A program made the translations under genes and the position numbers. The notes under the pieces were generated by a model. It made no database searches. It was given only the letters and a program-made list of their open reading frames with translations, and was not told the origin of the DNA. This document shows, piece after piece, positions 1 to 48,702 of a stretch of DNA of 64,000 bases. Source of the stretch: an archaeon (lineage in GTDB: Archaea > Nanobdellota > Nanobdellia > Pacearchaeales > GW2011-AR1); the NCBI GenBank assembly GCA_018653485.1, contig JABHZE010000006.1, positions 262,937 to 326,936 of the forward strand, written 5' to 3'. The first letter of the stretch is position 1. The number at the start of each line of letters is the position of its first letter.

Positions 1-60
1 AGCGGCCAAGCATCTCGCCTTCTCAAGGCGGTGACCCGGGTTCGAATCCCGGTGGGGGCA
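1..60 (+). tRNA. tRNA-Glu(CUC), 3' portion only (5' end lies left of the window)
   Basis: Anticodon stem tcgcc/ggcgg with loop ttCTCaa. T-arm ccggg-ttcgaat-cccgg, acceptor 3' strand tgggggc plus discriminator a. Backbone is almost identical to the complete tRNA-Glu(UUC) at 51620-51692. Confidence 0.8.
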
Positions 61-208
61 TTCAGGGATTCGAACTGTTCGAATTGAGTAAGTTTATTTT
101 TAATTCAATTACATTTTTTTTTGAAAATGAACTTAGGAGGAGGTGGGGGCATTTATATTTTTTATATCAATTAGAAATATTTTTATAAGTTATTTTCTTA
201 ATTAATTT

Positions 209-610
209 ATGGAAGAGGCAATGTATCAACAACCAAGTTCTCTTAAGTGGTTCTTTTTTGTGATTGGAATTGTAGCAACTTTAGCTTACAGAATAATTAT
301 TATTCTTAATTTTTATAATCCTTTATGGGTTAAGATTTCTTGGTATATTGGAACTATCGGTTTTATTTTTTATTTTGGTTATTTATATAATCTTCAATCT
401 AAAAGGGCTGATTTAGCAAAACAATATAATTTATTGGGTGTTGTAAAGGGGATGAAAATAAAAGGGAAACAAAAAGAAGCTTTAAGGTACATAATTAAAT
501 CAAATATGACTTCAAAAGCAAAATATAATTCTGCAATTATTTTTATTTTATCTGTGCTTGCTTTAATTGTTGGAATTATTTTAGATTTTAGTATAATAAT
601 TCTTAAATAG
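209..610 (+). CDS. hypothetical multi-pass membrane protein
   Basis: 133-aa ORF with several long hydrophobic segments (FFFVIGIVATLAY, WYIGTIGFIFYFGYLY, AIIFILSVLALIVGIILDF). No family recognised. Confidence 0.5.
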   Translation: MEEAMYQQPSSLKWFFFVIGIVATLAYRIIIILNFYNPLWVKISWYIGTIGFIFYFGYLYNLQSKRADLAKQYNLLGVVKGMKIKGKQKEALRYIIKSNMTSKAKYNSAIIFILSVLALIVGIILDFSIIILK

Positions 611-630
611 TTTTCAGGATAGGGGTAATT

Positions 631-861
631 ATGGTATTATCACAAAAAGTAAGGGATTATTATTTAAGGACGACAGGTTTTACTATTGAAGAAGCAAATA
701 TGGATTGTGGTTGCGGTTTTGTATCTGAATCTTGTTGTGGGGCTGGGCGAAGATTAGATGATGGGATGAGAAAAATAGATGCAGAGAATGAAGTGCTAGC
801 TAGTATGATTAGTGTTCCAATTATTATGTATGAAGATAGAAGATTACCTTCTGAGGAATAG
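631..861 (+). CDS. small Cys-rich protein, unknown function
   Basis: 76-aa ORF with a CGCGFVSESCCG cysteine cluster, starting 21 nt after the previous ORF. No family recognised. Confidence 0.4.
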   Translation: MVLSQKVRDYYLRTTGFTIEEANMDCGCGFVSESCCGAGRRLDDGMRKIDAENEVLASMISVPIIMYEDRRLPSEE

Positions 862-961
862 TTGTCTTTAATGGATGTTTTTCCAAAATATTTATAAGTC
901 TTTATTGTTTTAGTAGATTATCTATTTGATATTATATATTATCAAAAGGAGGTATTGATAA

Positions 962-1201
962 ATGACATGTATGAATTGGACTTTAACTGTATTAAGTGTG
1001 TTAATATTTATATTTGCAGTTTGGCCAGGTTATGGAACTGAAGTTACAACTCAATGGGTAGTTGGTATTTCTGCGGTTTTAATACTTATTGTGGCTTGGA
1101 CTGGAGTTGAATGTAAACCTTGTGCTGTTAATAATAAAAAAGGTAAGAAAGGAAAAGGTAAAAAAGATAAAGAAGAAGAGGAAGAAAAGAAGAAAAAGTA
1201 A
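962..1201 (+). CDS. small 2-TM membrane protein with Lys/Glu-rich tail
   Basis: GGAGGT Shine-Dalgarno-like motif about 8 nt upstream of the ATG. Two hydrophobic helices, then KKGKKGKGKKDKEEEEEKKKK. Followed by an oligo-T tract. Confidence 0.55.
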   Translation: MTCMNWTLTVLSVLIFIFAVWPGYGTEVTTQWVVGISAVLILIVAWTGVECKPCAVNNKKGKKGKGKKDKEEEEEKKKK

Positions 1202-1231
1202 TTTTTTATTTTTATTTTTATTTTTTTTATT
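1202..1231 (+). terminator. oligo-T tract (archaeal-type terminator candidate)
   Basis: ttttttatttttatttttattttttttatt lies immediately after the stop codon of 962-1201. Confidence 0.45.
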
Positions 1232-4318: not shown

Positions 4319-6796
4319 ATGAAAAAGAGTGTTAAGGGACAGAGTAAAATAATTACGGGAGTGTTATTAATTATGATTGTTTTAGTTGGTGTGACTATTG
4401 TTTATAATTTGGTAAATCCTATTTTACAAGAGGGAGTTTTAGAAAGTGAGGATGCTATTTCTAGATTACAATTACCTTTGTTAGGTGTTGAAGATTTAAT
4501 TGTTAATGGAAGTAATGTTAGTTTTAAATTAGATGCTGGAACTGGGGAGGGGATAATTACATTGGTGAAGATAATTTTTAAAACAAATGGTAGTGATTGT
4601 ATTGTTGAGAAAAATGTTAGTATTCAGGGATTAGAGAGTGAATTGATTAGTTTAAATGTTAGTGGTTGTGATGTTGTAAAAGATGTTAAAAGGGTGGAGG
4701 TTTTGGAGTGGGAGGAAAGTGATTCTGAAGAGGGTTCGGAAGATTCGAAGAGTGTTGAAGCTTGTTTGAGTGAGTGTCAGGATTTGACTGTGGAGGGAGG
4801 AATTTATACTTTATGTGAGGATGTGGTTCAGAATGAAAATAGTGATTGTTTTGTAATTAAAGCAGAAAATATTGAAATAGATTGTTTAAATTATAAAATT
4901 ACTTCGGATTATGAAAAAAGTGGAATCTATTCTAATGAAGATTATACAACTATTAAAAATTGCGAGGTTTCTATGAAAAAAGGTAGTTTATTTGGACGAG
5001 GAATTACTTTGGAAAATTCTAAAGGGCATTATATTTATAATAATATTTTAAATAATCAGACTATTGGTCTTCGTTTAGTTGCTATACAGGAATCAATTAT
5101 AGGGGAAAATGTAATTAGTTATAATTCTGGGGATGGGATTTATAGTTGGAATAGTCAAAATACTATTTTTAGAGATAATATTGTGGAAAATAATTTAGAT
5201 AGAGGGTTATATTTATATTCTTTTTCAGATAATAATGAGATTGAGGATAATATTTTTTGTGGTAATGGAGATAATGATATTTATTGTGTGAGGAGTAGTC
5301 ATCTTTTTGAAAATAATTATTTTGATAATGTTCTTGGTTGTGATGCTGCACGAATTCAAAATAATGAAAGATGTTCAATGCTTCGAGAAAATATTGAAAT
5401 TGATTCTTGTGGTAGTTTAAATGAGGAAGGTAAGAATTATCTTTTAACTCAGGATATTAGTAGTAATTCTGTGGATTTTAGTTGTTTATATATGTCAGAT
5501 GATACTGTTTTAGATTGTCAGGGGTATTGGATTCGTTTATATGGGAAGGGGGGTGGGATTAAGGTTAATGGTAAAGAGAATATTATAATTAAAAATTGTA
5601 ATATTGAATATCCTTCTCATAGGGGCACTGAAAGACATGCAAAGGCAATTGTTTTAGAAGGTTTAGAAGGTTTTGAATTATATAATAATCATATTATTGG
5701 GGCGAATATTGGAATATATGCTTCAGGTTCAAGTAATGGTATTATTGATGGATTAATAGTTGAAGGTAGTAGGTATGATGGGCTTTGGTTAGGAACTTCT
5801 AAAAGTGAGTTTAGAAATATTGAATCAAATGATAATGGTGAGAGTGGAATTTATATCCCAGGTGGTTTAGATAATAATTTTGAGAATATTTTAACTAATA
5901 ATAATGAGCGTGGGATGGAGTTTTGGTTTTCAAATCATTGCACTGTTAGTAATAGTGAGTTTAGGGATAGTGAAGATGTAGGGGTGGAAGTAAGTCATAG
6001 TAATTATATTTATTTGGAAAATTTGGTTATTAATAGGGTTGATGAAGAAGGGATTTATTTAGAGGATTCAAATGATTGTGTTTTGGATAATGTGGGGATT
6101 TTTAATGTAGGTACAAATGATGATGGTGCTGGAATTAGAGTTAGGGATTCAAATAATAATGTTATTCGAGATAGTATTTCTTGTGATAATGGGTTTAGGG
6201 ATTTTCGATGTTCTGGAATTGGAAATACTGGAAGTGGGAATAAGTTTGGTAAGGGTAGTGATTGCGGTGTTGAATATTCTGGTTGTTCTTGTGTAGAAAA
6301 TTGTGCTGTTTTGTATACTCTTGTATTAAGAGATTTGGATGGAAATATTTTAGGTTATTATGGGGATGATATAAAGACTTTTCAAATTAATCAGGGAGAA
6401 GAATTTTTTATTGATGTTTATTTAAAGGATTATGGAAAAAGAGGAGTTTATGCAGGTTATATGGATTTAATTTATAGTTCTAATGATTTAGTTGATTTTG
6501 TTCCAGGTTCTTTGGAGATTAATGAAGGTTTTGGAAGTGTAAATGAGGGAATGATAATAGAATCGAGAAGATCAATTAATGAAGTTGGAGGAGTAAGTGA
6601 GAATTATTATTCTCTTGGGGGTAATATGATGTGGTTGTTTAGTGTTCGTGCGATTGCGGTAATGGAGGGTATTGAGAGTTTTGAATTAAATCCTGCAGAT
6701 ATTTTTCCAGAGCATGATACTCTTATTTATGGGAATGATGAAGGGGTTAATATTAAAGATATTGTGTATAAGGGGGCAAGGTTAGAAATATTGTAA
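4319..6796 (+). CDS. large secreted/surface protein: archaeal pilin-type (class III) signal peptide + parallel beta-helix repeats + C-terminal cohesin-like domain
   Basis: N-terminus MKKSVKGQSKIITGVLLIMIVLVGV resembles archaeal type IV pilin signals. Long run of repeats such as IYNNILNNQTIGLRL and IFRDNIVENNLDRGLYL (NosD/pectate-lyase-like beta-helix). Cys-rich. Last ~160 aa (FFIDVYLKDYGKRGVYAGYMDLIYSSNDLVDFVPGSLEIN) look cohesin-like. Confidence 0.8.
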   Translation: MKKSVKGQSKIITGVLLIMIVLVGVTIVYNLVNPILQEGVLESEDAISRLQLPLLGVEDLIVNGSNVSFKLDAGTGEGIITLVKIIFKTNGSDCIVEKNVSIQGLESELISLNVSGCDVVKDVKRVEVLEWEESDSEEGSEDSKSVEACLSECQDLTVEGGIYTLCEDVVQNENSDCFVIKAENIEIDCLNYKITSDYEKSGIYSNEDYTTIKNCEVSMKKGSLFGRGITLENSKGHYIYNNILNNQTIGLRLVAIQESIIGENVISYNSGDGIYSWNSQNTIFRDNIVENNLDRGLYLYSFSDNNEIEDNIFCGNGDNDIYCVRSSHLFENNYFDNVLGCDAARIQNNERCSMLRENIEIDSCGSLNEEGKNYLLTQDISSNSVDFSCLYMSDDTVLDCQGYWIRLYGKGGGIKVNGKENIIIKNCNIEYPSHRGTERHAKAIVLEGLEGFELYNNHIIGANIGIYASGSSNGIIDGLIVEGSRYDGLWLGTSKSEFRNIESNDNGESGIYIPGGLDNNFENILTNNNERGMEFWFSNHCTVSNSEFRDSEDVGVEVSHSNYIYLENLVINRVDEEGIYLEDSNDCVLDNVGIFNVGTNDDGAGIRVRDSNNNVIRDSISCDNGFRDFRCSGIGNTGSGNKFGKGSDCGVEYSGCSCVENCAVLYTLVLRDLDGNILGYYGDDIKTFQINQGEEFFIDVYLKDYGKRGVYAGYMDLIYSSNDLVDFVPGSLEINEGFGSVNEGMIIESRRSINEVGGVSENYYSLGGNMMWLFSVRAIAVMEGIESFELNPADIFPEHDTLIYGNDEGVNIKDIVYKGARLEIL

Positions 6797-6797
6797 G

Positions 6798-7397
6798 ATG
6801 GGAACAACCCTTTTAAAAAAGGCTTGGCCCAAAACAAGATTTAAAATGAAAAGATCAATTATTTTTATAATGGGTATATTTTTGGTATTTTTAATTGTTG
6901 GAAATATATCTGCATTAAGTGTAACTCCTATTTCTATTGAAAATTGTGATGGAGCAGATATTGATAGAAACGGGATAGTTAGTGTTGAGGATATTAATTT
7001 GTTTAATGATGAAAGACTAAAGAAATGTGGGCATCTACATCCTTTAAATGCCTTGAATGTTATTAATTATTTAAATTCTGACGGACCAGGGGAGGCTTAT
7101 AGTGAGTATGAATATCTTTTAGATACAAATGCAGATGGTTTTGTTAGTCCTATTGATGCTTTGATTTTAATAAATCGTATGAATTTTTGTACTGATTTAC
7201 CTTCTGTGCCTTTAGCTTCTAATGCAGATTTTGATAAAAATGGATTTATTCAAGGGGATGATGTAGTAATATTTCTAGGTGTTTTAGAAGTTTATCCTAT
7301 TGGAATTAATTGTATGAGGAGTTTAGATAATCTGGAGATTTTTGTTTCAACTGGGAAAGATGTTTATAGTGTTGGAGAAAAGATTGAGTTGAATTAA
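6798..7397 (+). CDS. secreted dockerin-repeat protein
   Basis: Signal/TM segment SIIFIMGIFLVFLIVGNISA (true start may be the Met at 6846). Three Ca-binding dockerin-like loops: DIDRNGIVSVEDINLF, DTNADGFVSPIDALILINRMN, DFDKNGFIQGDDVVIF. The start abuts the stop of 4319-6796. Confidence 0.7.
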   Translation: MGTTLLKKAWPKTRFKMKRSIIFIMGIFLVFLIVGNISALSVTPISIENCDGADIDRNGIVSVEDINLFNDERLKKCGHLHPLNALNVINYLNSDGPGEAYSEYEYLLDTNADGFVSPIDALILINRMNFCTDLPSVPLASNADFDKNGFIQGDDVVIFLGVLEVYPIGINCMRSLDNLEIFVSTGKDVYSVGEKIELN

Positions 7398-7594: not shown

Positions 7595-7909
7595 ATGATA
7601 AGTTGGATAGTAATAGTGGTTTTGCTTGTTGCAGGTGTTTTTGCAATTAAGATGAATCATTTAAGGCATAGAATATTTATTGTATTTTTAATAGCTTTGG
7701 CTTTATTTTTGTATAGTTCAATGGCTTTAGTTGAAACTCAAAATGAATTAGATTTTACAACTACAGAGGGTTTTTTTAATGCTATTAAAGTTTATACTGG
7801 TTGGTTAGCTAATGGGTTTGATAATCTTAAGACTCTTACAGGAAACGTTATTGGTATGGATTGGGGCTCAACAAATGCAAGTTTTTTTGAGGGATCAGAG
7901 AATAAATAA
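7595..7909 (+). CDS. small N-terminally anchored membrane protein (paralog of 7935-8147)
   Basis: Two TM helices, then the motif YTGWLANGFDNLKTLTGNVIGMDW, shared with the next ORF (YAGWFDNLLDNGKSISGYFVKMEW). Confidence 0.55.
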   Translation: MISWIVIVVLLVAGVFAIKMNHLRHRIFIVFLIALALFLYSSMALVETQNELDFTTTEGFFNAIKVYTGWLANGFDNLKTLTGNVIGMDWGSTNASFFEGSENK

Positions 7910-7934: not shown

Positions 7935-8147
7935 ATGAAAATATTAATGTTTTTGATATTGTTTTTGTTTATAGGAGGATTTTTTATTATTTCTAATGAA
8001 AATATTCCTTTGAATAATGCTGAGAATATAGGTCTTTTTTTTGAGTTATATGCTGGATGGTTTGATAATTTGCTAGATAATGGGAAGAGTATTTCTGGTT
8101 ATTTTGTTAAAATGGAATGGTTGCCTGAGACTGGTGTTGAGGAATAG
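7935..8147 (+). CDS. small N-terminally anchored membrane protein (paralog of 7595-7909)
   Basis: TM helix ILMFLILFLFIGGFFII plus the shared Y-x-GW...DN...G....M-x-W motif. Confidence 0.55.
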   Translation: MKILMFLILFLFIGGFFIISNENIPLNNAENIGLFFELYAGWFDNLLDNGKSISGYFVKMEWLPETGVEE

Positions 8148-8148
8148 T

Positions 8149-8397
8149 TTAGTTGTAAATATTTTTTCTATGTCCAACTTCAATTACAAATATTTGAAGT
8201 TCTTTATTTTTGATATTTAGAATTATTCTATATTCTCCTATTCTTCCTCTAAAATATGGTGAACCTATTAATCTTTTAACATAATTATAGGGTCTTATAC
8301 GAATTCTATCCAAGTAAGATGAAACTCTGTTTTGTATTTCTATTGGAAGTTTATCAAATTGTTTTGAGGCGTTTTGAGAGAATTCTATTTTATACAT
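8149..8397 (-). CDS. relE: RelE/ParE-family type II toxin
   Basis: MYKIEFSQNASKQFDKLP...RPYNYVKRLIGSPYFRGRIGEYRIILNIKNKELQIFVIEVGHRKNIY matches the RelE consensus (yRlRiGdYRiiy...v.vghRk.iY). Start chosen at the ATG at 8397; the ORF track extends to 8433. Confidence 0.8.
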   Translation of the reverse strand: MYKIEFSQNASKQFDKLPIEIQNRVSSYLDRIRIRPYNYVKRLIGSPYFRGRIGEYRIILNIKNKELQIFVIEVGHRKNIYN

Positions 8398-8404
8398 TTT
8401 ATTA

Positions 8405-8623
8405 TCAATGAAGTCTATTTTTAATTTCTTCAAAAGATATTGTTTTTCCTTCTTTAATTTCTTTTTCAGAAATTTTTATATTTTGTTTTGTTTCATCAGA
8501 TAATTCCATTCTATCTTCGATTAAATCCCAGATGAGCTCCTCATAACTTTCTTTTTCATGAATCTTCATGTTTCTCATTTTTTCAATTAATTTATCACTT
8601 ACTTGAATTGTTGTTTGTGCCAT
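8405..8623 (-). CDS. antitoxin partner of RelE (archaeal RelB-like)
   Basis: 72-aa acidic protein ending 7 nt upstream of the RelE ATG. N-terminus TTIQVSDKLIEKMRNMK...ESYEELIWDLIE is typical of small archaeal antitoxins. Confidence 0.6.
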   Translation of the reverse strand: MAQTTIQVSDKLIEKMRNMKIHEKESYEELIWDLIEDRMELSDETKQNIKISEKEIKEGKTISFEEIKNRLH

Positions 8624-22495: not shown

Positions 22496-24616
22496 ATGGA
22501 AAAGAGGTTTAGGTTAGGTATAGTTTTTAGTGTAATCTTATTATTTATGATTATTAATATTAATTTAAGTTTTGCAGAAGTTGTTGAAGATGAATTTGGG
22601 AGAGAGTATTCTGGTTATATTATTGAATTTGAAGATGATTCTATCCTTGAGAGAAAAAGTGAAGTAGATGAGGTTGCATTAGAGAATGAAAATTATATTG
22701 ATAATGCATTTATCTTGAATCCTATTGCATTATATAAAAGGATTTTCTCAATTAGGGAAGGAGATGTGGATAGAATTGTTAAGGATTATTCTAAGGATTT
22801 AGATATTAAGAATGATAAGATTAAAGAGAATGTTTTGAAAGAGGGTTTTGTTTCTATGAATGAATTTAAAAATGTTTTTAATGGGATAAGTTTGAATATT
22901 AGTGATAATGAAGCAGAGGAGATTAAACAGATTCCAGGAGTTAAGAGAGTTTATAAAAATTTAAAAGTAAAGCCTTTGCTTGATTCTTCTGTTTCTTATT
23001 TAGGGGTTGATGAATATTGGGATAAAAATATTCATGGAGGAGATTGTGATGGAGAGGATTGTTTAGATGGTAGTGGAGTAAGTGTGGCTATTATTGATAC
23101 TGGTTTAAGTTATGATCATCCTGATTTCGGTGAATGTAATGATGCTGAGTTCTTAGCAGGAAATTGTGAAAGAGTTAAGGGAGGGTATGATTTTGTTAAT
23201 GATGATGCTATTCCTGAAGATAAGTATGATGGGCATGGGACTCATGTTGCAGGAATTGTTGGTGCTGATGGAGTTATGAAAGGAGTTGCTCCTGGAGTAG
23301 ATTTTTATGCTTATAAGGTTTTAACAATGGCGGGAGGAGAGTTAGATCATCTTGTTGCAGGAATTAATAGGGCTATGGATCCTAATAATGATGGTGATTT
23401 TAGTGATAGGATAGATATTATTAGTATGAGTTTGGGTACTGATTGTAATGGAGTTTATAATCTTGATTGCGGACCTGAAGATGCAATTAGTTCTGCTGTT
23501 TTAGATGCGATTAATGCTGGTTCAATTGTTGTTGTTTCAGCAGGTAATGATGGGCCTGAACCTGGAACAATTACTTCTCCTGCTGTTTTAGATGAAATAA
23601 TAAGTGTTGGAGCACATTATAATAATGATAATGCAGGAGTTAATTCTAATCTTGTGGTGGTAGGAAGTGGAAGAAATATTGTTTCTTTTCCATTGACTAA
23701 AGTTACTTCCGAGGAATTGAATGGGGAAGTGGTTAATGTTGGGGAAGGAGAATCTGAGGATTATGTTGGTAAAAATGTTGAAGGAAAAATTGTTTTAATA
23801 AGTATTAATAAAGGGGAATTATTCTTTAGTAAAATTTATGAAGCAGAAAAAAATGAAGCCATAGGGGTTATATTTTATAGAACTTCTATGAATGAAATTG
23901 AAAGACATTATGTTGGACAACATATTCCTAGTGTTTTTATTGGGAAAGATGATGGTTTGTTTTTGGCAAGTAGAACAAATGATGTTGTTAAGATAAATAT
24001 TGAAAATAGCCCTAATGCTGTTGCATATTTTAGTTCTAGAGGGCCTGTGAATTATGACGGAGATAGTTATTCTAAACCTGATATTTTAGCTCCCGGAGTC
24101 TCTATAACTTCTTCAAATGCCTTATGGTTGTTGGGGGGAAGTTATCCTAATTGGGAATATCATGTTTCATGGTCTGGAACAAGTATGGCTGCACCTCATG
24201 TTAGTGGAGTTATTGCATTAATTAAACAAATGAATCCAGATATAACTCATAAGGAAGTTAAGGAATTGTTAATGGGAAATGCTAAAGAAATTTCTGGTGT
24301 TGATGTTAATTCCCAAGGGGCGGGAATGATTAATTTTGAAGGTTTAATTAAATTTAAAGAAAATTCTAGGGTAATTAATTCAGGTAATAGTTTATCTGGA
24401 AATTTAATTATTCGTTTAGAAAAATTTGAAAGTAATAATTGGTTAATTCAAGATAGTTTTTCTCAACAAATAGTTGTGGAGGAAAATTTTGATTTAAGGG
24501 AATTTTGGAATTCTGAAGATATTGGTGCAGATGAACCTGGATTATATAGGGTTCAGGTAATCTTTGTGACTGAGAGGGGAATTGCTAGTTCAGATTATGA
24601 GTTTATAGTGGAATGA
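22496..24616 (+). CDS. secreted subtilisin-like serine protease (S8) with PA-domain insert
   Basis: Signal peptide, then catalytic triad motifs VAIIDTGLSYDHPDF (Asp), HGTHVAGIVGA (His) and GTSMAAPHVSGVIALI (Ser). A PA-like insert (GKNVEGKIVLIS...) lies between His and Ser. Confidence 0.9.
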   Translation: MEKRFRLGIVFSVILLFMIININLSFAEVVEDEFGREYSGYIIEFEDDSILERKSEVDEVALENENYIDNAFILNPIALYKRIFSIREGDVDRIVKDYSKDLDIKNDKIKENVLKEGFVSMNEFKNVFNGISLNISDNEAEEIKQIPGVKRVYKNLKVKPLLDSSVSYLGVDEYWDKNIHGGDCDGEDCLDGSGVSVAIIDTGLSYDHPDFGECNDAEFLAGNCERVKGGYDFVNDDAIPEDKYDGHGTHVAGIVGADGVMKGVAPGVDFYAYKVLTMAGGELDHLVAGINRAMDPNNDGDFSDRIDIISMSLGTDCNGVYNLDCGPEDAISSAVLDAINAGSIVVVSAGNDGPEPGTITSPAVLDEIISVGAHYNNDNAGVNSNLVVVGSGRNIVSFPLTKVTSEELNGEVVNVGEGESEDYVGKNVEGKIVLISINKGELFFSKIYEAEKNEAIGVIFYRTSMNEIERHYVGQHIPSVFIGKDDGLFLASRTNDVVKINIENSPNAVAYFSSRGPVNYDGDSYSKPDILAPGVSITSSNALWLLGGSYPNWEYHVSWSGTSMAAPHVSGVIALIKQMNPDITHKEVKELLMGNAKEISGVDVNSQGAGMINFEGLIKFKENSRVINSGNSLSGNLIIRLEKFESNNWLIQDSFSQQIVVEENFDLREFWNSEDIGADEPGLYRVQVIFVTERGIASSDYEFIVE

Positions 24617-29312: not shown

Positions 29313-29828
29313 ATGAAAAAAGCTCAATCACAGATTATAACAACTGTATTGATAATTCTATTGGTTCTTGCTGCAATCGTAATTGTATGGCAAGTAGTTC
29401 AGAATGCTGTTACTACAACTAGTGAAGAAGCTGAAGGACAAGCATCTTGTGTGGGTGTTGGTTTGGAAATAACTGATGTGACTGTTGGTGGTGTTGCTAC
29501 TGCTGCGAGTTGTACTGGTGGAATGGCTACAGGTAATGAGGTAGATAGTTCTGCTTGTACTAGTGCAGGTGGAACATGGACTCCGGCTGTTGCTGCGGGA
29601 ACAGGTGCTGTAACTGTTAAGAGAAGTGCTGCTAAGGCAGATGTCGAATTTGTTGATGTTACTGTTGTTGTAGGAGATACTGCATATCCTGGAGAAATTT
29701 CTGATTTAGGAGTTTTAGGAAGTGATACTGCTAGTGTTACTGTTGCTGATGGGGATGAAGTTGAAGTTGCTGCATTAATTGATGGCTTTCAATGTGAACC
29801 AGTGGATAGTGTAACTGCAAGTGCATAG
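29313..29828 (+). CDS. archaeal type IV pilin-like protein (class III signal peptide)
   Basis: MKKAQSQIITTVLIILLVLAAIVIVWQVV shares the QS-x-IIT-x-VLxI..VL N-terminus with 4319-6796. The mature part is Ala/Thr/Gly/Val-rich and visibly richer in G+C than its surroundings. Confidence 0.75.
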   Translation: MKKAQSQIITTVLIILLVLAAIVIVWQVVQNAVTTTSEEAEGQASCVGVGLEITDVTVGGVATAASCTGGMATGNEVDSSACTSAGGTWTPAVAAGTGAVTVKRSAAKADVEFVDVTVVVGDTAYPGEISDLGVLGSDTASVTVADGDEVEVAALIDGFQCEPVDSVTASA

Positions 29829-37530: not shown

Positions 37531-37884
37531 ATGGCAAAGAAAAAAGTTTTAATTGTTGATGATGATAAAAATGATTTAGAAACTATGAAAATGGTTCTTG
37601 AGAAAGATGGTTGTCAGGTAATTAGTGTTGAAAATGGTGCTGATGCTTTGGATGAACTAGAGGATGATGGTTATGATTTGATAATAATTGATATAAAAAT
37701 GCCTACATTATCTGGTTATGATTTGTTAAGATTAATGAGACAGAGGGTTAATCATAAAATAAAAATGATTTATGTTTCAATTGTTCCTGAACAAGAAGTT
37801 GATATGAATGATATTGAGGGCTTTATTCAAAAGCCGTTTTCTCCTGAAGAGTTTTTGAAAAAAGTTAAGGAAATTATTGGTTAG
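37531..37884 (+). CDS. stand-alone response-regulator receiver (CheY-like)
   Basis: VLIVDDDKND (acidic pocket), DLIIIDIKMPTLSG (phospho-acceptor Asp) and FIQKPF (conserved Lys). No output domain. Confidence 0.9.
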   Translation: MAKKKVLIVDDDKNDLETMKMVLEKDGCQVISVENGADALDELEDDGYDLIIIDIKMPTLSGYDLLRLMRQRVNHKIKMIYVSIVPEQEVDMNDIEGFIQKPFSPEEFLKKVKEIIG

Positions 37885-37980
37885 GAGAATTATATTTTAT
37901 GGGGGAGATTGGGAGAGTTTTATTTTTGGGAGAGTTTTATGAAAGAGAGAATTTAAATATACTTGATTATTTGTTTTATT

Positions 37981-38403
37981 ATGAATTTAATACCTCAATT
38001 AAAAAAAGAGCATGTAGAAATTATGCATTCGTTTGAATCAATTAAAGAAGGAGTTTCTAGTGGTAAATCAGGTGATGCTGATTTGATTGGTGAATTAAGA
38101 GAGTTAAAAAGAATTTTAGTTGCTCATTTAGATTTGGAAGATAAAATGTTGTATCCTGCTCTGTTGAATTCAGATGATAAAAAAGCAAAGGATTTAGGGA
38201 AAAAGTTTTCTGAAGAAATGTTAGGGATTTCAAAAGTGGCTTTGGCTTTTTTTGGAAAATATATGAGTGAAAGTATTTCTGATTTAATGAAGAGTTCTGA
38301 ATTTAGAAAAGAATTAGATGATGTTATTAAGGCTGTTACAAAAAGAGTTGATGCAGAGGAGAATATTCTTTATTTAGCATATGAGGAATGTTGTGAGAAG
38401 TGA
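37981..38403 (+). CDS. hemerythrin HHE cation-binding domain protein
   Basis: LKKEHVEIMHSFE...LKRILVAHLDLEDKMLYPAL... shows the H/E spacing typical of HHE-type hemerythrin-like domains. ATG at 37981 is preferred to the TTG at 37963. Confidence 0.65.
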   Translation: MNLIPQLKKEHVEIMHSFESIKEGVSSGKSGDADLIGELRELKRILVAHLDLEDKMLYPALLNSDDKKAKDLGKKFSEEMLGISKVALAFFGKYMSESISDLMKSSEFRKELDDVIKAVTKRVDAEENILYLAYEECCEK

Positions 38404-38504
38404 TTGTTGAGGGATTATTTGAGATAATAAATTGAATGATAATTTGTTGTGAATAAATTTATAAATGGTAAATGATTAAGGTTTGTATAAAAAGGTGAAA
38501 TATA

Positions 38505-38858
38505 ATGAGTAAAACAATTATGGTTGTGGATGATGAAGGAGATATTAGAGAGACTGTTAAGACTGTTTTAGAAAAAGAAGGTTATTCTGTTATAACTGCT
38601 ATAAGTGGAGATGATGCTTTGAAAAAATGGACTAAGCAGAAACCTGATTTAATTCTTATGGATATTATGATGCCTGGAACTCCTGTTAAGGATATTATTC
38701 CTAAGATGACTGGAACTAAGGTTGCTTATCTTTCTGTTGTTAGAACTTCTGAGGCTGAAAAAGAGGATTTAATGAAGAGTAAGAATATTGTGGATTTTAT
38801 ACAGAAGCCTTTTGATATAAAAGAATTGGTTAAAAAAGTTAAAAAATTGGTGGGTTAA
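38505..38858 (+). CDS. stand-alone response-regulator receiver (CheY-like)
   Basis: IMVVDDEGD, DLILMDIMMPG and FIQKPF. No output domain. The stop is 1 nt before the next start. Confidence 0.9.
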   Translation: MSKTIMVVDDEGDIRETVKTVLEKEGYSVITAISGDDALKKWTKQKPDLILMDIMMPGTPVKDIIPKMTGTKVAYLSVVRTSEAEKEDLMKSKNIVDFIQKPFDIKELVKKVKKLVG

Positions 38859-38859
38859 G

Positions 38860-39462
38860 ATGATAGATATGAAATCATCGCTTTCTTCAAATCAAATATT
38901 ACTTTTAGTTATGCCTAGTGCAGAATATAATGAGGTTCTTGTTGATGCAATGAAACAATTGTCAGGGAATATTTGCTATGTTACTTCAAATAAAACTTTT
39001 GATTCTTTAAAAGAAACTTTTAAAAAAAGTAAGGTGAATATTGATAATGTAGTTTTTATTGATTCTATTTCAAAGACTTTGAAGAAAACTCCTGACCAGG
39101 CAGATAGTGTTTATTATGTTTCTTCTCCTGGAGCATTGACTGAATTGTCTTTAGTTATTAATAAATTTTTAAGGCATGAATTTGATTATTTGATTTTTGA
39201 TTCTGTTACTAATCTTGCTGTATATCAAAAAAAGAATATGACTTCTAAGTTTATTTCTAGTTTGGCTGATAAAATTAAGAAGACTAAAACAAAAGCTATT
39301 TTTTATGCTTTGGATAGTGTTGAGCAAGCTTGGGTAATTGATCATGCTGGAATGGTTGTGGATAAGGTGATTAAGAGTGGTGGGGTGGATGGTGTTAAGG
39401 GGGAAGGGAAAGTTATTAAGAAGAGACTAAGTAAAAAAAAGAAAGAGGAGAAGGAGGTGTAA
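38860..39462 (+). CDS. KaiC/RecA-fold-like protein lacking a Walker A P-loop (paralog of 48703-49221)
   Basis: By eye it aligns with the KaiC domain of 47059-48690. QILLLVMPSAEYNEV occupies the P-loop position, GNICYVTSNK matches KKCLYMSFEE, and a Walker-B-like YLIFDSVTNL matches FIALDSLTAI. No GxxxxGK[ST] anywhere. Confidence 0.6.
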   Translation: MIDMKSSLSSNQILLLVMPSAEYNEVLVDAMKQLSGNICYVTSNKTFDSLKETFKKSKVNIDNVVFIDSISKTLKKTPDQADSVYYVSSPGALTELSLVINKFLRHEFDYLIFDSVTNLAVYQKKNMTSKFISSLADKIKKTKTKAIFYALDSVEQAWVIDHAGMVVDKVIKSGGVDGVKGEGKVIKKRLSKKKKEEKEV

Positions 39463-39463
39463 A

Positions 39464-39811
39464 ATGGCAGTAGGTCCAATGACTTTTGAAGGAGATTTGT
39501 TATTGATGGTAGCTATTGTTTTAGGATTAATTGCAACAGTTATAACTTTTTTAAATAGTCGGAAATTAAAAGGAGATGTTTTTGAAAAACCTTTTGTTTA
39601 TCTTTCAGTAGGTATTTTTTTAGCAACTTTTTCTTTAATCGCTGTAACTTTTTTTCAAGGAGTTTTTAGTGAATTAACTGTTGGTTTAATTCATGATATT
39701 AGTTTTATTCTGGGGTTAGGTTTAATGTTTTTAGCCTCTATACAGATTACAAAATTTTTAAAAGGATTAGGAAGTTTTGAACAAAAGTTACCTAAGAAGA
39801 TTAAGAAATAA
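39464..39811 (+). CDS. small 3-TM membrane protein, island family member 1
   Basis: 115 aa. TM1 is followed by FLNSRKLKGDVFEK, then two more TMs and a Lys tail. Same length and layout as 43723-44070. The start is 1 nt after the previous stop, with aaggaggt upstream. Confidence 0.55.
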   Translation: MAVGPMTFEGDLLLMVAIVLGLIATVITFLNSRKLKGDVFEKPFVYLSVGIFLATFSLIAVTFFQGVFSELTVGLIHDISFILGLGLMFLASIQITKFLKGLGSFEQKLPKKIKK

Positions 39812-39834
39812 TTTTGTTAGGGATTTTATTTTTT

Positions 39835-39860
39835 GGAGCTTTGCTCCTTTTTTATTTTTA
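39835..39860 (+). terminator. hairpin plus oligo-T terminator candidate
   Basis: ggagc-tttg-ctcc followed by ttttttattttta. Confidence 0.5.
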
Positions 39861-39945
39861 TTTTGTTGATTGATTTGTTTTTGAAATGCGAAGATATAAA
39901 TAATCAGGATTGTTATTTATAATGTGATTAAAAGGAGTAATTAAA

Positions 39946-40323
39946 ATGAAATTTGAAATGTTTTTTGCGTTTAGTATGTTTTTGTTAGGGGTAGGAGGGT
40001 TTTTCTTAGCTAGTTCTGTTTTGACAATGACTGGATTGTCGATAGCAGAGGTTGATGGGGGTGGTTCTTCGTCATCATTATTGTTGTTTATAGGTATAGG
40101 AGTAATTATTGCAGGTATTTTTGGAGTTATGATTGCAAAGAAATTTTATAAACATGATGGAGTGGATAAAAAAAGTATTAAGGGTAAGAAAGTTGGTGGT
40201 AAGGGTGGGAGAAAGGATAATAAGGTTGATAAGAAAAAGGATGAGAAGAAGGATGAGAAGAAAAAAAAGATGAAGGATAAAAAGAAGGATGATGTGAATA
40301 GTGGTAAGAAAGATAAGAAATAA
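39946..40323 (+). CDS. 2-TM membrane protein with long poly-Lys/Asp tail
   Basis: 125 aa with two hydrophobic helices, then KGKKVGGKGGRKDNKVDKKKDEKKDEKKKKMKDKKKDD. Confidence 0.5.
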   Translation: MKFEMFFAFSMFLLGVGGFFLASSVLTMTGLSIAEVDGGGSSSSLLLFIGIGVIIAGIFGVMIAKKFYKHDGVDKKSIKGKKVGGKGGRKDNKVDKKKDEKKDEKKKKMKDKKKDDVNSGKKDKK

Positions 40324-40413
40324 GGAAGCGAGAATATAAAAAGGTTTTTTTCTAATTAGATTATATAATAAATCTGTTTATTTAATAATGGATTTATATA
40401 ATAAAAAGGTTAA

Positions 40414-43400
40414 TTGAAAAAGAGGTTAATTGAAAAAGTGGTAAAACAATTGGGATTAAAGAAATTTATATTTGTAAGTGTGTTTTTGAGTTTGTTTTTA
40501 ATAAATGTTAATTTAGTATTTGCTCAAGAATCTTTGAATAAAGATTTTTTATCTCAAAAAGTATTAACTGAACTTAATTTTATTGAAGATGATTTAATAT
40601 TTTTAAAGGAGTTGCCTGATTTTAATGCTTTTATTAATGGAGATTTATCTCGTAAAGAGCATTTACAGGATACTTTTTTTAGTTTTTCAAAAAATAAACA
40701 GATTTATTATCAAGTAAGATATATTGATGAGAGTGGAAAGGAAATTATTAGGGTAGATAATATTGAAGGAGAGACTGAGATTATCTCTGAAGATAATCTT
40801 CAGAATAAAAAAGGAAGATATTATTTTGATGATGCTTTTCTTTTAGATGATGGAGATATTTTTGTTTCACCTTTGGATTTAAATATTGAACAAGGTAAAT
40901 TAGAAAATAGGGGGAGTGAAGGAAACCCTGTTTATGTTCCTGTTATAAGATATGCTACTCCTGTTTTTGATTCAGAAAAGAAAAAAGTAGGGATAATTAT
41001 TCTTAATGTTTATGCAGATTATATTTTGGATATTTTTAAGAAAAATGGTGCAGGGTTGTCTGAAGATAGGGGATATCTTGTAAATAAGGAGGGTTATTTT
41101 TTATTTCATTCTGATTCTTCAAAAGAATTTGGTTTTATGTTTGAGAATGATATTACTTTAAGAAATGAATTTGGAGGAGAGTTTAGTCGAGTTTTTGATA
41201 GTGATGAGGGTGAATTTAATTTTAATGGAAAAACTTATGATTATATTAAAATTTTTCCTTCTGATTTGGAAATAATTTCAAGTAGTGGTTCTCCTAAGAG
41301 TTATGCCCCTAGTCTATCTAAGGTTCAGGGTAAAGATTATTTTTGGATTTTAATTGTTGAATCTCCTATTGTTAAGGGTGTTGTTGATTTCATGGCTCCT
41401 GTTTTTTTAGGTATTTATATTTTTTTAGGTATTCTTATTTTTTTAGGGATTTATTTTATTTTCTTTAAGAAAAAGAAAGAAAAAGAAAAAGAGAAAGAAA
41501 AAGATATTAGTGGCTTTTTCTTTAGTAAATTAAATAGGAAGATTATTTTAGGATTTTTAATTGTTGCATTATTGTTTGGAGTTATTGCGGGAGCAGGTAG
41601 TTTTTATTTGGAAAAAGCAGCTAAATCTGATTATATTAATGCTATTAATGAGATTGAAGCAGATTTTAATGATTTTAGGGAAGGAGATATAAGGACTTTA
41701 TCGGTAGGTTTGGAAATTGCTGTTCAGGATAAGGATTTGAAGGAAGTTTATTTAGAAAAGGATAGGGATAAACTTTATAATTATGGGCAAAATTTATTCA
41801 ATGAATTAAAGGATAAGTATGCTGTTACTCATTTTTATTTTATTGAACCTGATGGGAATTGTTTTGTTAGGTTGCATAATAAGGATAAGTTTAATGATGA
41901 AATTAAAAGGGCTACTTTTTTAAAGTCTAAAGAGACAAAAGATATTGGAGCTGGAATTGAATTAGGAAAAACTGCGTTTGCATTAAGAGTTGTTAAGCCT
42001 TATTATAATGATAATGAATTAATTGGTTATATGGAATTAGGTGAAGAAATAGATCATTTTTTAGAAGAGATGAAGAAAGGTAAAAATAATGAATTTTCAA
42101 TTATTATTGATAAGGAGTTTATAGATGAAGAAAATTGGGCTTCTGTTAGGGAGGTTAAAGGATTAGAGAATAATTGGGATAAGTTAGAGAATCATGTTGC
42201 TATTGAATCTACTATTGAAAATAATGTGCATTGTTTTAATTCTGATAATGTTGTAAAGGTTTTAGATGGAGAAAGGGTTTTTGGGACTTTTGATTCTGAA
42301 AAAGGAGATTTTGTATGTGGTGGTTTTCCTTTAATTGATGCTTCTGGAAATGAAGTTGGAGCTATGTTTGCATTGATTGATTCTTCTAAGAAGATTGGTT
42401 TTATAACTGCTATAAAATATGGTTTATTGTTTATGGTTGTTCTTTTTATTTTGGCAATTATTATTCTTAGTTTTTTTATTAAATTAAAAATTATAAATCC
42501 TATTGCTAAATTGAATAATGCAACTTCTGAGATTCAAAAAAGAAATTTTAAAGCAAGGGTTGATATTAATACAGGAGATGAATTACAGGTTTTAGGAGAA
42601 TCTTTTAATAAAACTGCAAAAGTTTTGCAACATATGGATGAAGAACATAAGCAATTGGAAAAAGCTAAGACTGAATTTTTGAGTATTACTTCGCATGAAT
42701 TAAGAAGTCCGATGACTCCAATGCAAGCTCAGTTGCAAATGTTACTTGGAGAGTATTATGGAAAATTAAATCCTAAACAAAAAAATTCATTAGATATTGT
42801 TGCAAGAAATACGAAAAGATTGGATAATATTATTGTTGATTTTTTGGAGATTTCTCGTATAGAGGCTGCGAGATTAAAGTTTAGATTTGTTAAAAAAGAT
42901 TTGACTGGTTCTATTAAAAGGTTAATGAAAGAGATGGTTGGTTTTATGCCTGAGAAGAAAGTTAAGTTATATAGTAAGATTGGTAAATTGCCTGTGATTG
43001 AAGTTGATCCAGATAGAGTTATGCAGGTTTTGAGAAATTTGATTAATAATGCTATTAAGTTTTCTCCTGAAGGAAAGAAAGTTGTTGTTTCTGCAGGATT
43101 AAAAGGAAATATGATTGAGTTTTCTGTTAAAGATGAAGGTATTGGTATTAAGGCAGAAGATCAGAAGAGAATTTTTGAACCATTTTTTCAAGCAGAACAG
43201 ACTATGTATAGGGAGCATCAAGGGACTGGATTAGGATTAGCAATTATTAGAGGAATTGTTGAGTCTCAAGAAGGGAATGTTTGGTTAGAGTCTGAAGAGG
43301 GTAAGGGAACAACTTTCTTTTTTACTATTCCTTTGAAACCTGTTAGGAATGTTAAGGCAATTAAATTATTGTTTTCTGAATCTAAAAATATTGAAAAAGA

Positions 43401-43722: not shown

Positions 43723-44070
43723 ATGGTTAATATAATAACAATAAATTGGATAATTGGAGGAGTTGCAGGAATTTTAATGTTCTATGCTTCTTTTATTACA
43801 TTTATGGCTGCAAAAAAAATGACAGGAGAATTAAAGAAATCTATTTTATTATTACTTGGCGCTTTATTATTTTATTTATTTATGGGATTTGGAATAGGAA
43901 TAATGGCTGTTAAAGATATTCATTATAGTGAGAGAGTTTGGTTGATTATTTCAACTTTTTCTTTAATAGGGGGAATTTTATTTGTAGTCGGTGCTAGAAA
44001 ATTGTTTAAGGTTTTGTTAAATGTTTCTGAAAATGATAAAAAGATAAATAAAAAGGAGGTTAAAAAATGA
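43723..44070 (+). CDS. small 3-TM membrane protein, island family member 2
   Basis: 115 aa. The start is immediately adjacent to the HK stop. TM1 is followed by FMAAKKMTGELKKS, then two more TMs and a Lys tail. Confidence 0.55.
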   Translation: MVNIITINWIIGGVAGILMFYASFITFMAAKKMTGELKKSILLLLGALLFYLFMGFGIGIMAVKDIHYSERVWLIISTFSLIGGILFVVGARKLFKVLLNVSENDKKINKKEVKK

Positions 44071-44492: not shown

Positions 44493-44508
44493 TTAATTAC
44501 TAAATAAA

Positions 44509-44685
44509 ATGAAAGAGAAAATTGTAACAATTGGAACTTTGCTAGAGAAGGGTTTAATTAAAGAAAGTACTAAAATTAGAATTAGTATTGAAAATCTAAA
44601 AGAGATTGATTTGATTAAACCTCTTGATAAGAAAAAAGTTGTTAAGATAACTGAGCTTGATGAAATGGGGTTGATAAAAAAATAA
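44509..44685 (+). CDS. candidate 58-aa protein with SHOCT-like G-L-I-K motifs
   Basis: Below the ORF-track cutoff. Encodes MKEKIVTIGTLLEKGLIKESTKIRISIENLKEIDLIKPLDKKKVVKITELDEMGLIKK. The same (E/K)KG(L/I)(I/L) motif occurs twice in the HK C-terminal extension. Confidence 0.35.
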   Translation: MKEKIVTIGTLLEKGLIKESTKIRISIENLKEIDLIKPLDKKKVVKITELDEMGLIKK

Positions 44686-48690: not shown

Positions 48691-48702
48691 TAGGGGGTTA
48701 AA

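Follow-up and report, generated by a model that had tools for sequence, protein, structure and literature searches.

A candidate cohesin–dockerin pair for surface adhesion on adjacent genes of a marine DPANN archaeon

Concrete, testable surface parts are scarce for the attachment of tiny-genome DPANN archaea to other cells, and the locus described here raises the question whether two neighbouring genes of such an organism could encode a device of this kind. The window, i.e., the whole 64-kb stretch of DNA that we analysed, is placed as coming from a marine oxygen-minimum-zone DPANN archaeon of the Pacearchaeota/Woesearchaeota type. The nearest relatives of the ATPase encoded beside the two genes are found in Pacearchaeota/Woesearchaeota MAGs. 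An earlier sequence-only reading had taken the organism for a host-dependent archaeon; as judged from its taxonomy, it would depend on a host. The answer that we favour, and on balance consider probable, is that both genes form a translationally coupled, non-cellulosomal cohesin–dockerin pair whose products assemble into an adhesive surface complex. The two genes and the parts of the first are as follows:

4319..6796, plus strand: ORF A, a modular surface protein of 825 aa (ORF listing, Pfam, relative P0153), in the order signal/anchor, N-domain, acidic linker, two beta-helix modules and cohesin-fold domain
4319..4414, plus strand: class III-like (prepilin-type) signal of ORF A, residues 1-32, MKKSVKG/Q followed by a 22-residue hydrophobic helix (read from sequence)
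4415..4711, plus strand: N-terminal domain of ca. 100 aa after the helix, residues 33-131 (conserved in the relative)
4712..5380, plus strand: acidic linker and parallel beta-helix module 1 with Cys-rich cap, residues 132-354 (Pfam NosD at 168-319)
5381..6292, plus strand: parallel beta-helix module 2 with Cys-rich cap and tail, residues 355-658 (Pfam Beta_helix at 397-548)
6293..6793, plus strand: predicted C-terminal cohesin-fold domain, residues 659-825, 167 aa (AF2 model and Foldseek)
6798..7397, plus strand: ORF B, a putatively secreted dockerin-repeat protein of 199 aa (Pfam Dockerin_1, relative P0003)

Both ORFs lie where the sequence-only reading had placed them, and the second gene does abut the first, with the ATG of ORF B (6798) following the TAA stop of ORF A (6794-6796) after a spacer of 1 nt. 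The full 825-aa gene of ORF A is called in other assemblies, too; a 668-aa version (P0004) that might pass for an alternative start-codon call is actually a truncation at a contig edge. Within the window, a cohesin-like domain and a dockerin protein each occur exactly once, and with the two modules on adjacent genes, a Pfam E-value of 3.4e-11 and a Foldseek E-value of 1e-6 the observation is beyond chance. Around the genes, PADLOC matched no defence system, sigma-70 promoter-like sites were no commoner than chance, the sole terminator-like site is located inside ORF B on the opposite strand, and a hairpin 3' of ORF B was not significant (z = -1.27). Metatranscriptome contigs of the same study gave zero coverage, which is uninformative on expression either way.

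How ORF A would be held at the cell surface depends on its N-terminus, MKKSVKG/QSKIITGVLLIMIVLVGVTIVYNLV, which the sequence-only reading had taken for an archaeal pilin-type class III signal. A basic n-region, a [KR][GA]/ cleavage site (here KG/QS) and a hydrophobic segment can indeed all be recognised (MKKSVKG/QSK-IITGVLLIMIVLVGVTIVYNLV), and KGQx and RAQx are experimentally verified EppA sites, while large non-pilin class III proteins are known as well (PMC4371748). The 11 residues around the site (KKSVKGQSKII) are identical in a relative that shares 60% identity overall, and a K[GA]-QS-x-IIT-x-VL motif is common to ORF A and a 171-aa pilin-like protein encoded at 29313; across 322 kb of related DNA this motif occurs in only two proteins, and permuted control motifs had no match at all. 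From these features, cleavage by a prepilin peptidase at KG/Q appears most likely. While site and helix of the proposed signal thus stand, recognition by profiles failed: no pilin or archaellin N-terminal profile (Pilin_N, Class_IIIsignal, arch_flag_Nterm) of Pfam or NCBIfam matched ORF A at E <= 1 to 10. Used as a homolog query, the N-terminal 135 aa retrieved nothing, and no prepilin peptidase (PibD/FlaK/EppA), PilB or PilC is found among the ca. 24 ORFs scanned, membrane proteins included, in these 64 kb out of a contig that measures at least 440 kb.

It is therefore conceivable, if somewhat unlikely in our view, that the N-terminus is an uncleaved signal-anchor or a Sec signal and that ORF A is a type II membrane-anchored protein with no link to pilus machinery. 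The missing profile matches, homologs and machinery genes would fit such a protein, as would the atypical Lys at +3, the lack of the Glu at +5 that is typical of EppA substrates, and the restriction of the motif to two proteins. Against this stand the position of K-G/Q right before a hydrophobic stretch that, with 22 residues, exceeds the length of a cleavable Sec h-region, the perfect conservation of the site in an otherwise diverged relative, and the recurrence of the motif in a small pilin-like protein with none of its permutations being matched. Our preferred reading, with class III processing, would keep ORF A on a membrane-embedded or pilus-borne helix.

Behind this helix, the N-domain (residues 33-131) has no assigned family and no homolog was found for it. 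It is followed by the long Cys-rich parallel beta-helix that had been recognised before, which we resolve into two modules: ORF A contains 24 Cys and scores above the gathering score for Pfam Beta_helix (PF13229, 98.6 bits) and NosD (PF05048, 90.1 bits), with the TIGR03804 repeat matched six times. Module 2 is conserved in the relative and weakly matches the NosD structure 7o0y. ORF A is not a NosD equivalog (TIGR04247 score of 63 vs a cut-off of 300), and though Pfam Pect-lyase_RHGA_epim reaches 42.9 bits, no catalytic family could be assigned from Pfam, NCBIfam or structure matches.

The C-terminal domain, proposed earlier to be cohesin-like, is invisible to the corresponding sequence search, as Pfam Cohesin (PF00963), even at E <= 10, matches neither ORF A as a whole nor its last 170 aa, and searches of this domain against PDB sequences, single-sequence and profile-based, returned nothing or a spurious ClpA. 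Since both routes came up empty, the fold is settled by predicted structure alone. The AF2 model is all-beta and highly confident (pLDDT 95.2, pTM 0.90), and ranks 1-14 of a Foldseek search of the PDB are all cohesins, of types I, II and III (5lxv, 4fl4, 3ul4, 1anu, 1ohz, 2zf9, 3ghp; E 1e-6 to 1e-4, TM 0.55-0.72), whereas non-cohesin matches have much lower TM values of 0.3-0.45. The predicted jelly-roll superposes on solved cohesins and thereby supports a cohesin fold, i.e., the beta-sandwich on which the earlier suggestion hinged.

The second gene would supply the complementary module, and its parts are the following:

6798..6914, plus strand: Sec-type signal peptide of ORF B, residues 1-39, predicted cut NISA/LS, alternative start M17 (by inspection)
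6957..6992, plus strand: Ca loop 1, DIDRNGIVSVED, residues 54-65 (regular expression; conserved in P0003)
7014..7082, plus strand: degenerate dockerin repeat, residues 73-95 (alignment to dockerins of the cohesin-like family)
7122..7187, plus strand: dockerin repeat with Ca loop, DTNADGFVSPIDALILINRMN, residues 109-130 (regular expression and alignment; AF2 pLDDT 80-91)
7227..7292, plus strand: dockerin/EF-hand-like repeat with Ca loop, DFDKNGFIQGDDVVIFLGVLE, residues 144-165 (regular expression)

With its K/R-rich n-region, a 16-residue h-region and I-S-A at positions -3 to -1 (VFA/PV in the relative), ORF B looks like a protein secreted via Sec. Three dockerin-type Ca-binding repeats had been described in it, and they hold up well: Pfam Dockerin_1 (PF00404) matches at 43.6 bits, with a gathering score of 22.9 (E = 3.4e-11, two stretches, best 85-129), and is also found in the precomputed annotation of P0002 and P0003, while EF-hand families reach at most 17 bits, under their cut-offs. 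Loops fitting D-x-[DN]-x-[DN]-G-x-[VI]-x-x-x-D start at residues 54, 109 and 144, and no other of the 141 ORFs in the window has such a loop. The type I dockerin pattern of two ~22-residue repeats, each with a 12-residue loop (D1, N/D3, D/N5, G6, hydrophobic 8, D12) and a helix after it, is present, so that the Asp-rich loops match dockerin or EF-hand geometry at the level of this pattern. The two repeats of the type I dockerin 4fl4_A align with those at 109-130 and 144-165, and the one at 144-165 corresponds to the second repeat in 4fl4_A as well as in 2y3n_B, another type I dockerin. A PDB profile search with ORF B retrieved dockerins, the best being the four-loop double dockerin 8x39 (E 1.6e-4), with calmodulins near the dockerins in score. 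The AF2 model of ORF B (mean pLDDT 55) is confident only for residues ~80-133, the core covered by the MSA, and Foldseek with this low-confidence model gave non-significant EF-hand matches and a dockerin, 4uyq_B, at rank 35.

Aligning ORF B with 24 dockerin segments that come from proteins of the cohesin-like family (alignment A3) also brought out a fourth repeat at residues 73-95 that had been missed before; it has lost its Ca loop (RLKKCGHLHP) but kept its helix PLNALNVINYLN, the core helix being confident in AF2.

Whether the modules of ORF A and ORF B are cognate partners is a separate matter, and one for which the locus offers indirect support from its conservation, its manner of gain and the family of its cohesin-like domain. 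The adjacency is kept in a second species with 60–65% identity, where the two genes overlap by 4 nt instead of being separated by the 1-nt spacer. Its ORF A (P0153, 60% identical) aligns end to end except for one module, beta-helix module 1, and its ORF B (P0003, 65% identical) stops at the same point as ours, so that the short C-terminus of ORF B is not a truncation. N-domain, cohesin domain and ORF B are all under purifying selection, with similar dN/dS values of ~0.4 (~0.39 for the N-domain, ~0.40 for ORF B). No relatives of ORF A appeared in a reference-genome scan, and scanning metagenomes gave no match either, neither to the dockerin protein nor, in a second scan, to the cohesin domain. 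Together, the genes make up a 3.1-kb cassette inserted between the ATPase gene and the s104/s70 genes for small membrane proteins, which form a backbone that is conserved in genomes of the Pacearchaeota/Woesearchaeota type; as ATPase and s104/s70 are directly adjacent without A and B in six other DPANN genomes, the pair was gained as one unit. The same arrangement removes the downstream 104-aa and 70-aa membrane proteins as candidate parts of the system, given that they directly follow the ATPase in the six genomes lacking A and B. None of the other related DPANN loci compared contains the pair, which is thus not a general DPANN feature.

Beyond this locus, the cohesin-like domain belongs to a large, unannotated and mostly bacterial family of 362 representatives, 28-38% identical to the archaeal domain, with which it shares the motifs GV[FY]A.Y.D and NPAD..P.HDTL.YG. 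Among the representatives listed, 104 of 150 (~70%) combine the domain with the dockerin subtype of ORF B in a single polypeptide, which provides a domain-fusion argument for functional coupling. The bacterial members (one from Pirellulaceae, others with Planc_extracel or PEP-CTERM) range from 200 to 3,000 aa and have one to four cohesin-like copies, mostly with the dockerin in the same chain and alongside cadherin-like or Big_9 domains. The giant surface proteins among them bear "DVNxDGxVSPIDALLVINxLN" dockerins of the subtype also seen in ORF B, though in the archaeal pair the modules are split onto two genes, and the dockerin core of ORF B has a degenerate first Ca loop and is flanked by two additional Ca loops. 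One member (P0011) passes the Cohesin cut-off of Pfam through several weak stretches added together (35 vs 24.1 bits), and 5 of 38 members show weak Cohesin matches (best E 0.0011), more than for any other Pfam family. Unseen by Pfam and labelled "Ig-like" (in one case "Ig-like domain-containing protein" at NCBI) or "hypothetical" in public records, the family would escape surveys based on Pfam Cohesin, so that non-cellulosomal cohesins may be under-counted.

Conserved stop-start coupling, joint gain of the cassette and the frequent fusions of family and dockerin are what suggests a partnership of A and B. The modules could instead be real but have their partners elsewhere in the ~440-kb contig or in another organism, with adjacency merely reflecting co-regulation. 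Our view is limited to 64 kb of the genome, cohesin–dockerin specificity is narrow and not predictable from adjacency (PMC4217186), and at another locus (L013) a relative of the cohesin domain precedes a second cohesin-like protein instead of a dockerin. We nevertheless regard separate partners as unlikely for a cassette that was gained as a unit with its stop-start coupling conserved, that holds the only module of either kind in the window, and whose cohesin family and dockerin subtype so often share a polypeptide. That there is no cohesin–dockerin function at all, with the C-terminal beta-sandwich being some generic Ig-like or carbohydrate-binding module of a beta-helix protein (a polysaccharide-active enzyme or a wall component) and ORF B an extracellular EF-hand Ca2+-binding protein, would accord with the silent Pfam Cohesin profile on ORF A, the "Ig-like" label, the calmodulin scores and the pectate-lyase-type enzymes often found among beta-helix folds, but is quite improbable in light of the 14 top-ranking cohesins in Foldseek, the Cohesin matches of P0011 and further members, the clear preference for Dockerin_1 over EF-hand families, the co-occurrence with dockerins and the lack of any assignable catalytic family.

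For the cognate pair that we favour, we infer A–B binding, class III processing and a role in adhesion or host attachment, which could play out as follows. After export, ORF A would stay on the cell surface through its hydrophobic N-terminal helix, exposed by a prepilin-peptidase cut at KG/Q and inserted in the membrane or a pilus-like fibre; its two beta-helix modules would reach outward and display the cohesin-fold domain at the far tip. ORF B, Sec-secreted and consisting almost wholly of four dockerin/F-hand repeats, three of them with intact Ca2+ loops, would bind this cohesin in a Ca2+-dependent manner. Since ORF B has no enzyme or payload and its repeats exceed what one dockerin needs, it most likely would act as an adaptor or cross-linker that links several ORF A molecules or couples ORF A to a further surface bearing cohesins, and the output would be adhesion or assembly of a surface matrix rather than catalysis. 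Planctomycetota-like bacteria, which abound in these oxygen-minimum waters, build giant surface proteins from the same cohesin and dockerin subtypes, and this raises the far-fetched idea of a borrowed connector set in which a pilus-borne cohesin and a multivalent dockerin adaptor plug the DPANN cell into the cohesin–dockerin network of a bacterial host; if true, this would be cross-domain attachment through module mimicry. Along with this idea goes the suggestion that the unannotated family may comprise the cohesin partners of planctomycete-type dockerins. In any case, the locus supplies two small, expressible proteins for studies of DPANN surfaces and a sharp prediction, namely that ORF B binds the last 167 residues of ORF A in a Ca2+-dependent, EDTA-sensitive fashion. 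Should pilin-type anchoring hold true, a cohesin would be displayed on type IV pilus-like machinery, whereas the anchoring modes described for cellulosomes, such as SLH domains and sortase, do not include this one.

Attachment had been proposed in preference to a cellulosome, and indeed the 64-kb window has no multi-cohesin scaffoldin and no dockerin-borne enzyme, only one cohesin-like domain plus one dockerin protein that lacks a catalytic domain. The type I complexes of C. thermocellum (CipA-Xyn10B, 1OHZ/2CCL; OlpA-Doc918, 3UL4) share the jelly-roll (TM 0.55-0.71), and their dockerins resemble ORF B in the 12-residue Ca loop plus helix and in the ~13-residue linker between repeats. However, the ORF A domain is only ~11-15% identical to cellulosomal cohesins, and the archaeal locus has no tandem-cohesin scaffoldin, glycoside hydrolase payload, SLH or sortase anchor. 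Four consecutive F-hand-type repeats are also found in double dockerins (DocDoc of A. cellulolyticus; 8x39, annotated as "Serine protease" and matching ORF B profile positions 30-119), an arrangement that has been called "highly unusual" (PMC4217186), but these are enzyme modules, whereas ORF B is free-standing and one of its four loops is degenerate. Omnitrophota, likewise ultra-small and putatively host-dependent, encode giant ORFs with nine non-cellulosomal dockerins that were proposed to be adhesins (PMC10066038), though these are bacteria with a giant single ORF and no paired cohesin described. For ORF A, the closest parallels are archaeal class III-signal proteins such as those of the Sulfolobus bindosome, FlaFind-positive proteins of >1000 aa and predicted pilus-tip adhesins, which combine a prepilin-type site and hydrophobic helix with a size far above that of pilins and are displayed via type IV pilus-like machinery (PMC4371748, PMC4858521). 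In contrast to them, no bas/pil genes were seen near ORF A, its processing is putative, and its payload is a beta-helix and a cohesin instead of a solute-binding domain. Archaeal counterparts of the pair are the cohesin–dockerin modules of Archaeoglobus fulgidus (Bayer 1999), whose binding was verified by Haimovitz 2008 according to PMC9012536, and the non-cellulosomal modules of ANME archaea (Chadwick 2022, PMC9012536). Like the pair described here, they are archaeal, unrelated to cellulolysis and located on secreted or surface proteins, with a proposed role in surface assembly or cell-cell contact (PMC9012536). Archaeal non-cellulosomal cohesin–dockerin pairs have thus been known since 1999 and are not a new principle, while we found no report of such a pair in DPANN in the literature searched. 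ANME archaea combine a dockerin with up to five cohesins per chain or carry dockerins on substrate-binding proteins, whereas here, in a DPANN host, a beta-helix protein whose N-terminus is pilin-like bears a single cohesin, too divergent for PF00963, and the next gene encodes a payload-free dockerin protein of four repeats.

The putative surface protein ORF A and the dockerin-repeat protein ORF B are encoded between a P-type ATPase gene and two genes for small membrane proteins:

4319..6796 (+): ORF A, 825 aa, starting 8 nt past the ATPase gene
6798..7397 (+): ORF B, 199 aa, starting 1 nt past the TAA stop of ORF A
7595..7909 (+): 104-aa small membrane protein, paralogous to the 70-aa protein
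7935..8147 (+): 70-aa small membrane protein, paralogous to the 104-aa protein

The window has a G+C content of ca. 29%, its genes include archaeal housekeeping ones (Rpo7, Kae1, Elp3, a YGR210-type GTPase, and archaeal-type aminoacyl-tRNA synthetases), and the closest kin of the flanking ATPase (62-72% identity) all come from Candidatus Pacearchaeota/Woesearchaeota MAGs with the exception of one labelled only "bacterium". Identical copies of the locus are found in Saanich Inlet samples from 135-200 m and in other marine assemblies on contigs of up to 440 kb, where the 825-aa ORF A is called full-length. By the ATPase relatives, the organism is a DPANN archaeon, a taxonomy that suggests host dependence.

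The genes of the 104-aa and 70-aa proteins come directly after the ATPase gene in six other Pacearchaeota/Woesearchaeota genomes but stand 3' of ORF B in the window, arguing that ORF A and ORF B were gained as one 3.1-kb cassette. The gap between the ATPase and 104-aa genes (window 4310 to 7595) is a variable insertion slot, occupied in the window by the cohesin/dockerin cassette; two comparison loci (L018, 3128..5135; L024, 11284..13230) have unrelated ORFs there, on both strands. The conserved, ATPase-associated 104/70-aa pair matches no Pfam family and shares the motif Y[TA]GW..N..DN.K...G....M.W in the window and also in comparison loci L016-L024. Just 3' of the locus, the small overlapping genes 8149..8433 and 8405..8623 (-), with precomputed Pfam matches to ParE_toxin (weak) and DUF7557, likely form a toxin-antitoxin pair.

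ORF A is built from discrete modules. A small domain at residues 33-131, for which a search detected no relatives, is followed by an acidic linker and then two parallel beta-helix modules, each with a Cys-rich cap. Pfam matches to Beta_helix (98.6 bits) and NosD (90.1 bits) and a total of 24 Cys bear out the long Cys-rich parallel beta-helix proposed in the sequence-only reading. No catalytic assignment was found for this region; the NosD match is weak and the score lies far under the NosD equivalog cut-off. Aligned end to end with ORF A, a 610-aa relative at 60% identity (P0153) is short of exactly the linker and the first beta-helix module, which shows the modular build of ORF A and confirms its start at 4319.

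The cohesin-like nature that had been proposed for the C-terminal domain stands at the level of predicted fold, but not at that of Pfam, whose Cohesin HMM gives no match on ORF A; residues 659-825 match neither Pfam nor PDB sequences, whether searched as single sequence or as profile. AlphaFold2 on a 38-sequence alignment of the domain returned an all-beta model (pLDDT 95.2, pTM 0.90) for which the first 14 Foldseek matches in the PDB are all type I and III cohesin modules of cellulosomal bacteria (E 1e-6 to 1e-4, TM up to 0.72). More cohesins of types I, II, and III follow at lower ranks, with non-cohesin matches scoring clearly lower (TM 0.3-0.45). Pfam Cohesin, the sole Pfam family to match more than one of the aligned members, does so weakly for 5 of the 38, and its cut-off is reached by one multi-copy member (P0011). 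The domain of ORF A, predicted to adopt a cohesin fold yet falling outside the Pfam family, is best described as belonging to a divergent cohesin-like family.

An exhaustive HMMER search with the domain retrieved 362 representative proteins at E <= 1e-3, mostly very large; among the matches listed, 86 of 150 proteins carry 2-4 domain copies. Conserved motifs of the family are GV[FY]A.Y.D..Y, [IV]DE.G, and NPAD..P.HDTL.YG, and its members are unannotated in public records or labelled "hypothetical" or "Ig-like domain-containing". Often, the 2-4 copies reside in proteins of 1,000-3,000 aa together with planctomycete-type dockerins and Big_9/cadherin-like, RTX, or PEP-CTERM modules, and the family may be the cohesin partner of these dockerins. 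At comparison locus L013 (33% GC contig; 33..794 and 863..1228), a Cys-rich member with a cohesin-like C-terminal end (P0053) precedes another secreted protein, whose start looks cohesin-like by eye (…VGDIFYVEIMAREL…GGIALDISWDPDILE), yet is not reached by the family HMM at E <= 1e-3.

As judged by eye, ORF B starts with a Sec-type signal (NISA|LS, where | marks the predicted cleavage site); it had been described as a secreted protein with three dockerin-type Ca repeats. This holds: it scores 43.6 bits against Pfam Dockerin_1 (cut-off 22.9), with EF-hand families at 17 bits or less and under their cut-offs, and the 12-residue dockerin/EF-hand pattern fits three loops at residues 54, 109, and 144 and none in any other ORF of the window. 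To these we add a degenerate fourth repeat at residues 73-95 that has kept the helix PLNALNVINYLN and lost its Ca loop. PDB searches retrieved the type I dockerins 4fl4_A, 2ccl_B, 1ohz_B, and 2y3n_B, with the four-loop tandem dockerin 8x39 on top and calmodulin scoring near the dockerins. The AF2 model is confident only at residues ~80-133, two helices around the loop at 109, and a Foldseek search with it returned EF-hand matches short of significance, with the dockerin 4uyq_B at rank 35. The short tail of ORF B is genuine, given that a relative with 65% identity (P0003) stops there too, and no enzyme or other payload was found in the protein.

Four indirect lines of evidence agree in making ORF A and ORF B putative partners. 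First, the genes are coupled, with ORF B abutting the stop of ORF A as initially noted (1-nt spacer) and overlapping it by 4 nt in a relative, a second species that has retained their adjacency. Second, by the gene order described above, the two were gained together as one cassette at a variable slot. Third, dockerins of the ORF B subtype (...PLDVNxDGxVSPIDALLVINxLN...) share a polypeptide with the cohesin-like domain in 104 of 150 family representatives among the matches listed, which amounts to a domain-fusion argument. Finally, the 64-kb window contains exactly one cohesin-like and one dockerin module, and a dN/dS of ~0.4, similar across the N-domain, the cohesin domain, and ORF B, indicates purifying selection.

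The putative anchor of ORF A lies in its first 32 residues, MKKSVKG|QSK-IITGVLLIMIVLVGVTIVYNLV, where a K-G|Q site separates a short basic stretch from a hydrophobic helix of 22 residues. Of the pilin-type class III signal (the archaeal prepilin-type signal peptide) claimed from the sequence, the site ahead of a hydrophobic helix is thus present, but curated pilin profiles do not match ORF A; neither a prepilin peptidase nor PilB/PilC was found among the scanned ORFs of the window. The site resembles those of Methanococcus maripaludis pilins processed by the prepilin peptidase EppA and characterised in vivo (KG|QV, KG|QI, KG|QL, and RA|QI; PMC4371748), and class III signals are known on proteins of more than 1000 aa, e.g., in the bindosome (PMC4371748, PMC4858521). 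The 11 residues KKSVKGQSKII are unchanged in the relative with only 60% overall identity, and the motif recurs on another protein of the window:

29313..29828 (+): candidate type IV pilin, 171 aa, Thr/Ala/Gly/Val-rich, with a K[GA]-QS-x-IIT-x-VL N-terminus as in ORF A

This protein begins MKKA|QSQIITTVLIILLV... (also MKKA|QSQIITTVLIILLVLAAIVIVWQVV...) and is weakly similar to ORF A residues 4-65. Encoded between GluRS and Elp3, it has no Pfam match and no pilus genes close by; its residue composition is unusual for a 29% GC genome. Alternatively, the N-terminus of ORF A could be a plain signal-anchor, as favored by the absence of the +5 Glu of EppA substrates and the rarity of the motif in related DNA compared, though the conserved 11 residues, the EppA-like site, and the shared pilin-like motif speak against it. 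Judged from these sequence features, class III processing of ORF A appears fairly probable. In both cases, ORF A would be held at its N-terminal end and carry the cohesin at the far end.

We propose that ORF A is exported and anchored through its N-terminal helix, either in the membrane or in a pilus-like fibre, and that its beta-helix stalk displays the cohesin domain. Secreted ORF B would then dock there via its Ca2+-loaded repeats and, given four repeats and no payload, would most economically serve as a multivalent adaptor or cross-linker in adhesion or surface-matrix assembly. Attachment to a host cell by the pair is plausible for a DPANN archaeon, though entirely inferred. The initial observation is confirmed and its interpretation partly supported.

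Elsewhere in the window, a dense signalling cluster at 37531..49221 (+), striking in such a genome, encodes two receiver-like ORFs along with a 1102-aa histidine kinase (bacterial-type sensor, dCache, HAMP, HisKA, HATPase) and a 554-aa dCache-HAMP protein; it also includes two KaiC/DUF7090-like proteins and a hemerythrin fusion of a KaiC-like ATPase. A tyrosine recombinase gene (50516..51562 (-); Phage_integrase, 68.9 bits) adjoins a tRNA gene (51620..51692 (-)), a junction that may be the edge of an integrated element, and a 706-aa subtilase at 22496..24616 (+) combines Peptidase_S8 with an inserted PA domain, an I9 propeptide, and an N-terminal hydrophobic stretch. GC skew of the + strand is very strong over + genes (0.3-0.6) and near zero or negative over - genes, and this tracking of gene strand across the whole window points to a coding strand heavily loaded with G over C.

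In an archaeal group of which little is understood, the locus supplies a putative surface-interaction pair that is small and directly testable, and it brings an unannotated cohesin-like family to light. Cohesin-dockerin pairs in DPANN lineages were not reported in the literature searched, the coverage of which is incomplete. In other archaea, non-cellulosomal cohesin and dockerin modules are established: they were recognized in Archaeoglobus fulgidus in 1999, verification of binding came in 2008 and a survey in 2009, and ANME archaea have many of them (all as cited in PMC9012536). Double dockerins are documented rarities (PMC4217186), and dockerin arrays of host-dependent Omnitrophota have been proposed as adhesins (PMC10066038). 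Unlike the known archaeal modules, those described here involve a divergent cohesin family, are split over two genes, and combine a pilin-like anchor with a four-repeat dockerin protein that carries no payload.
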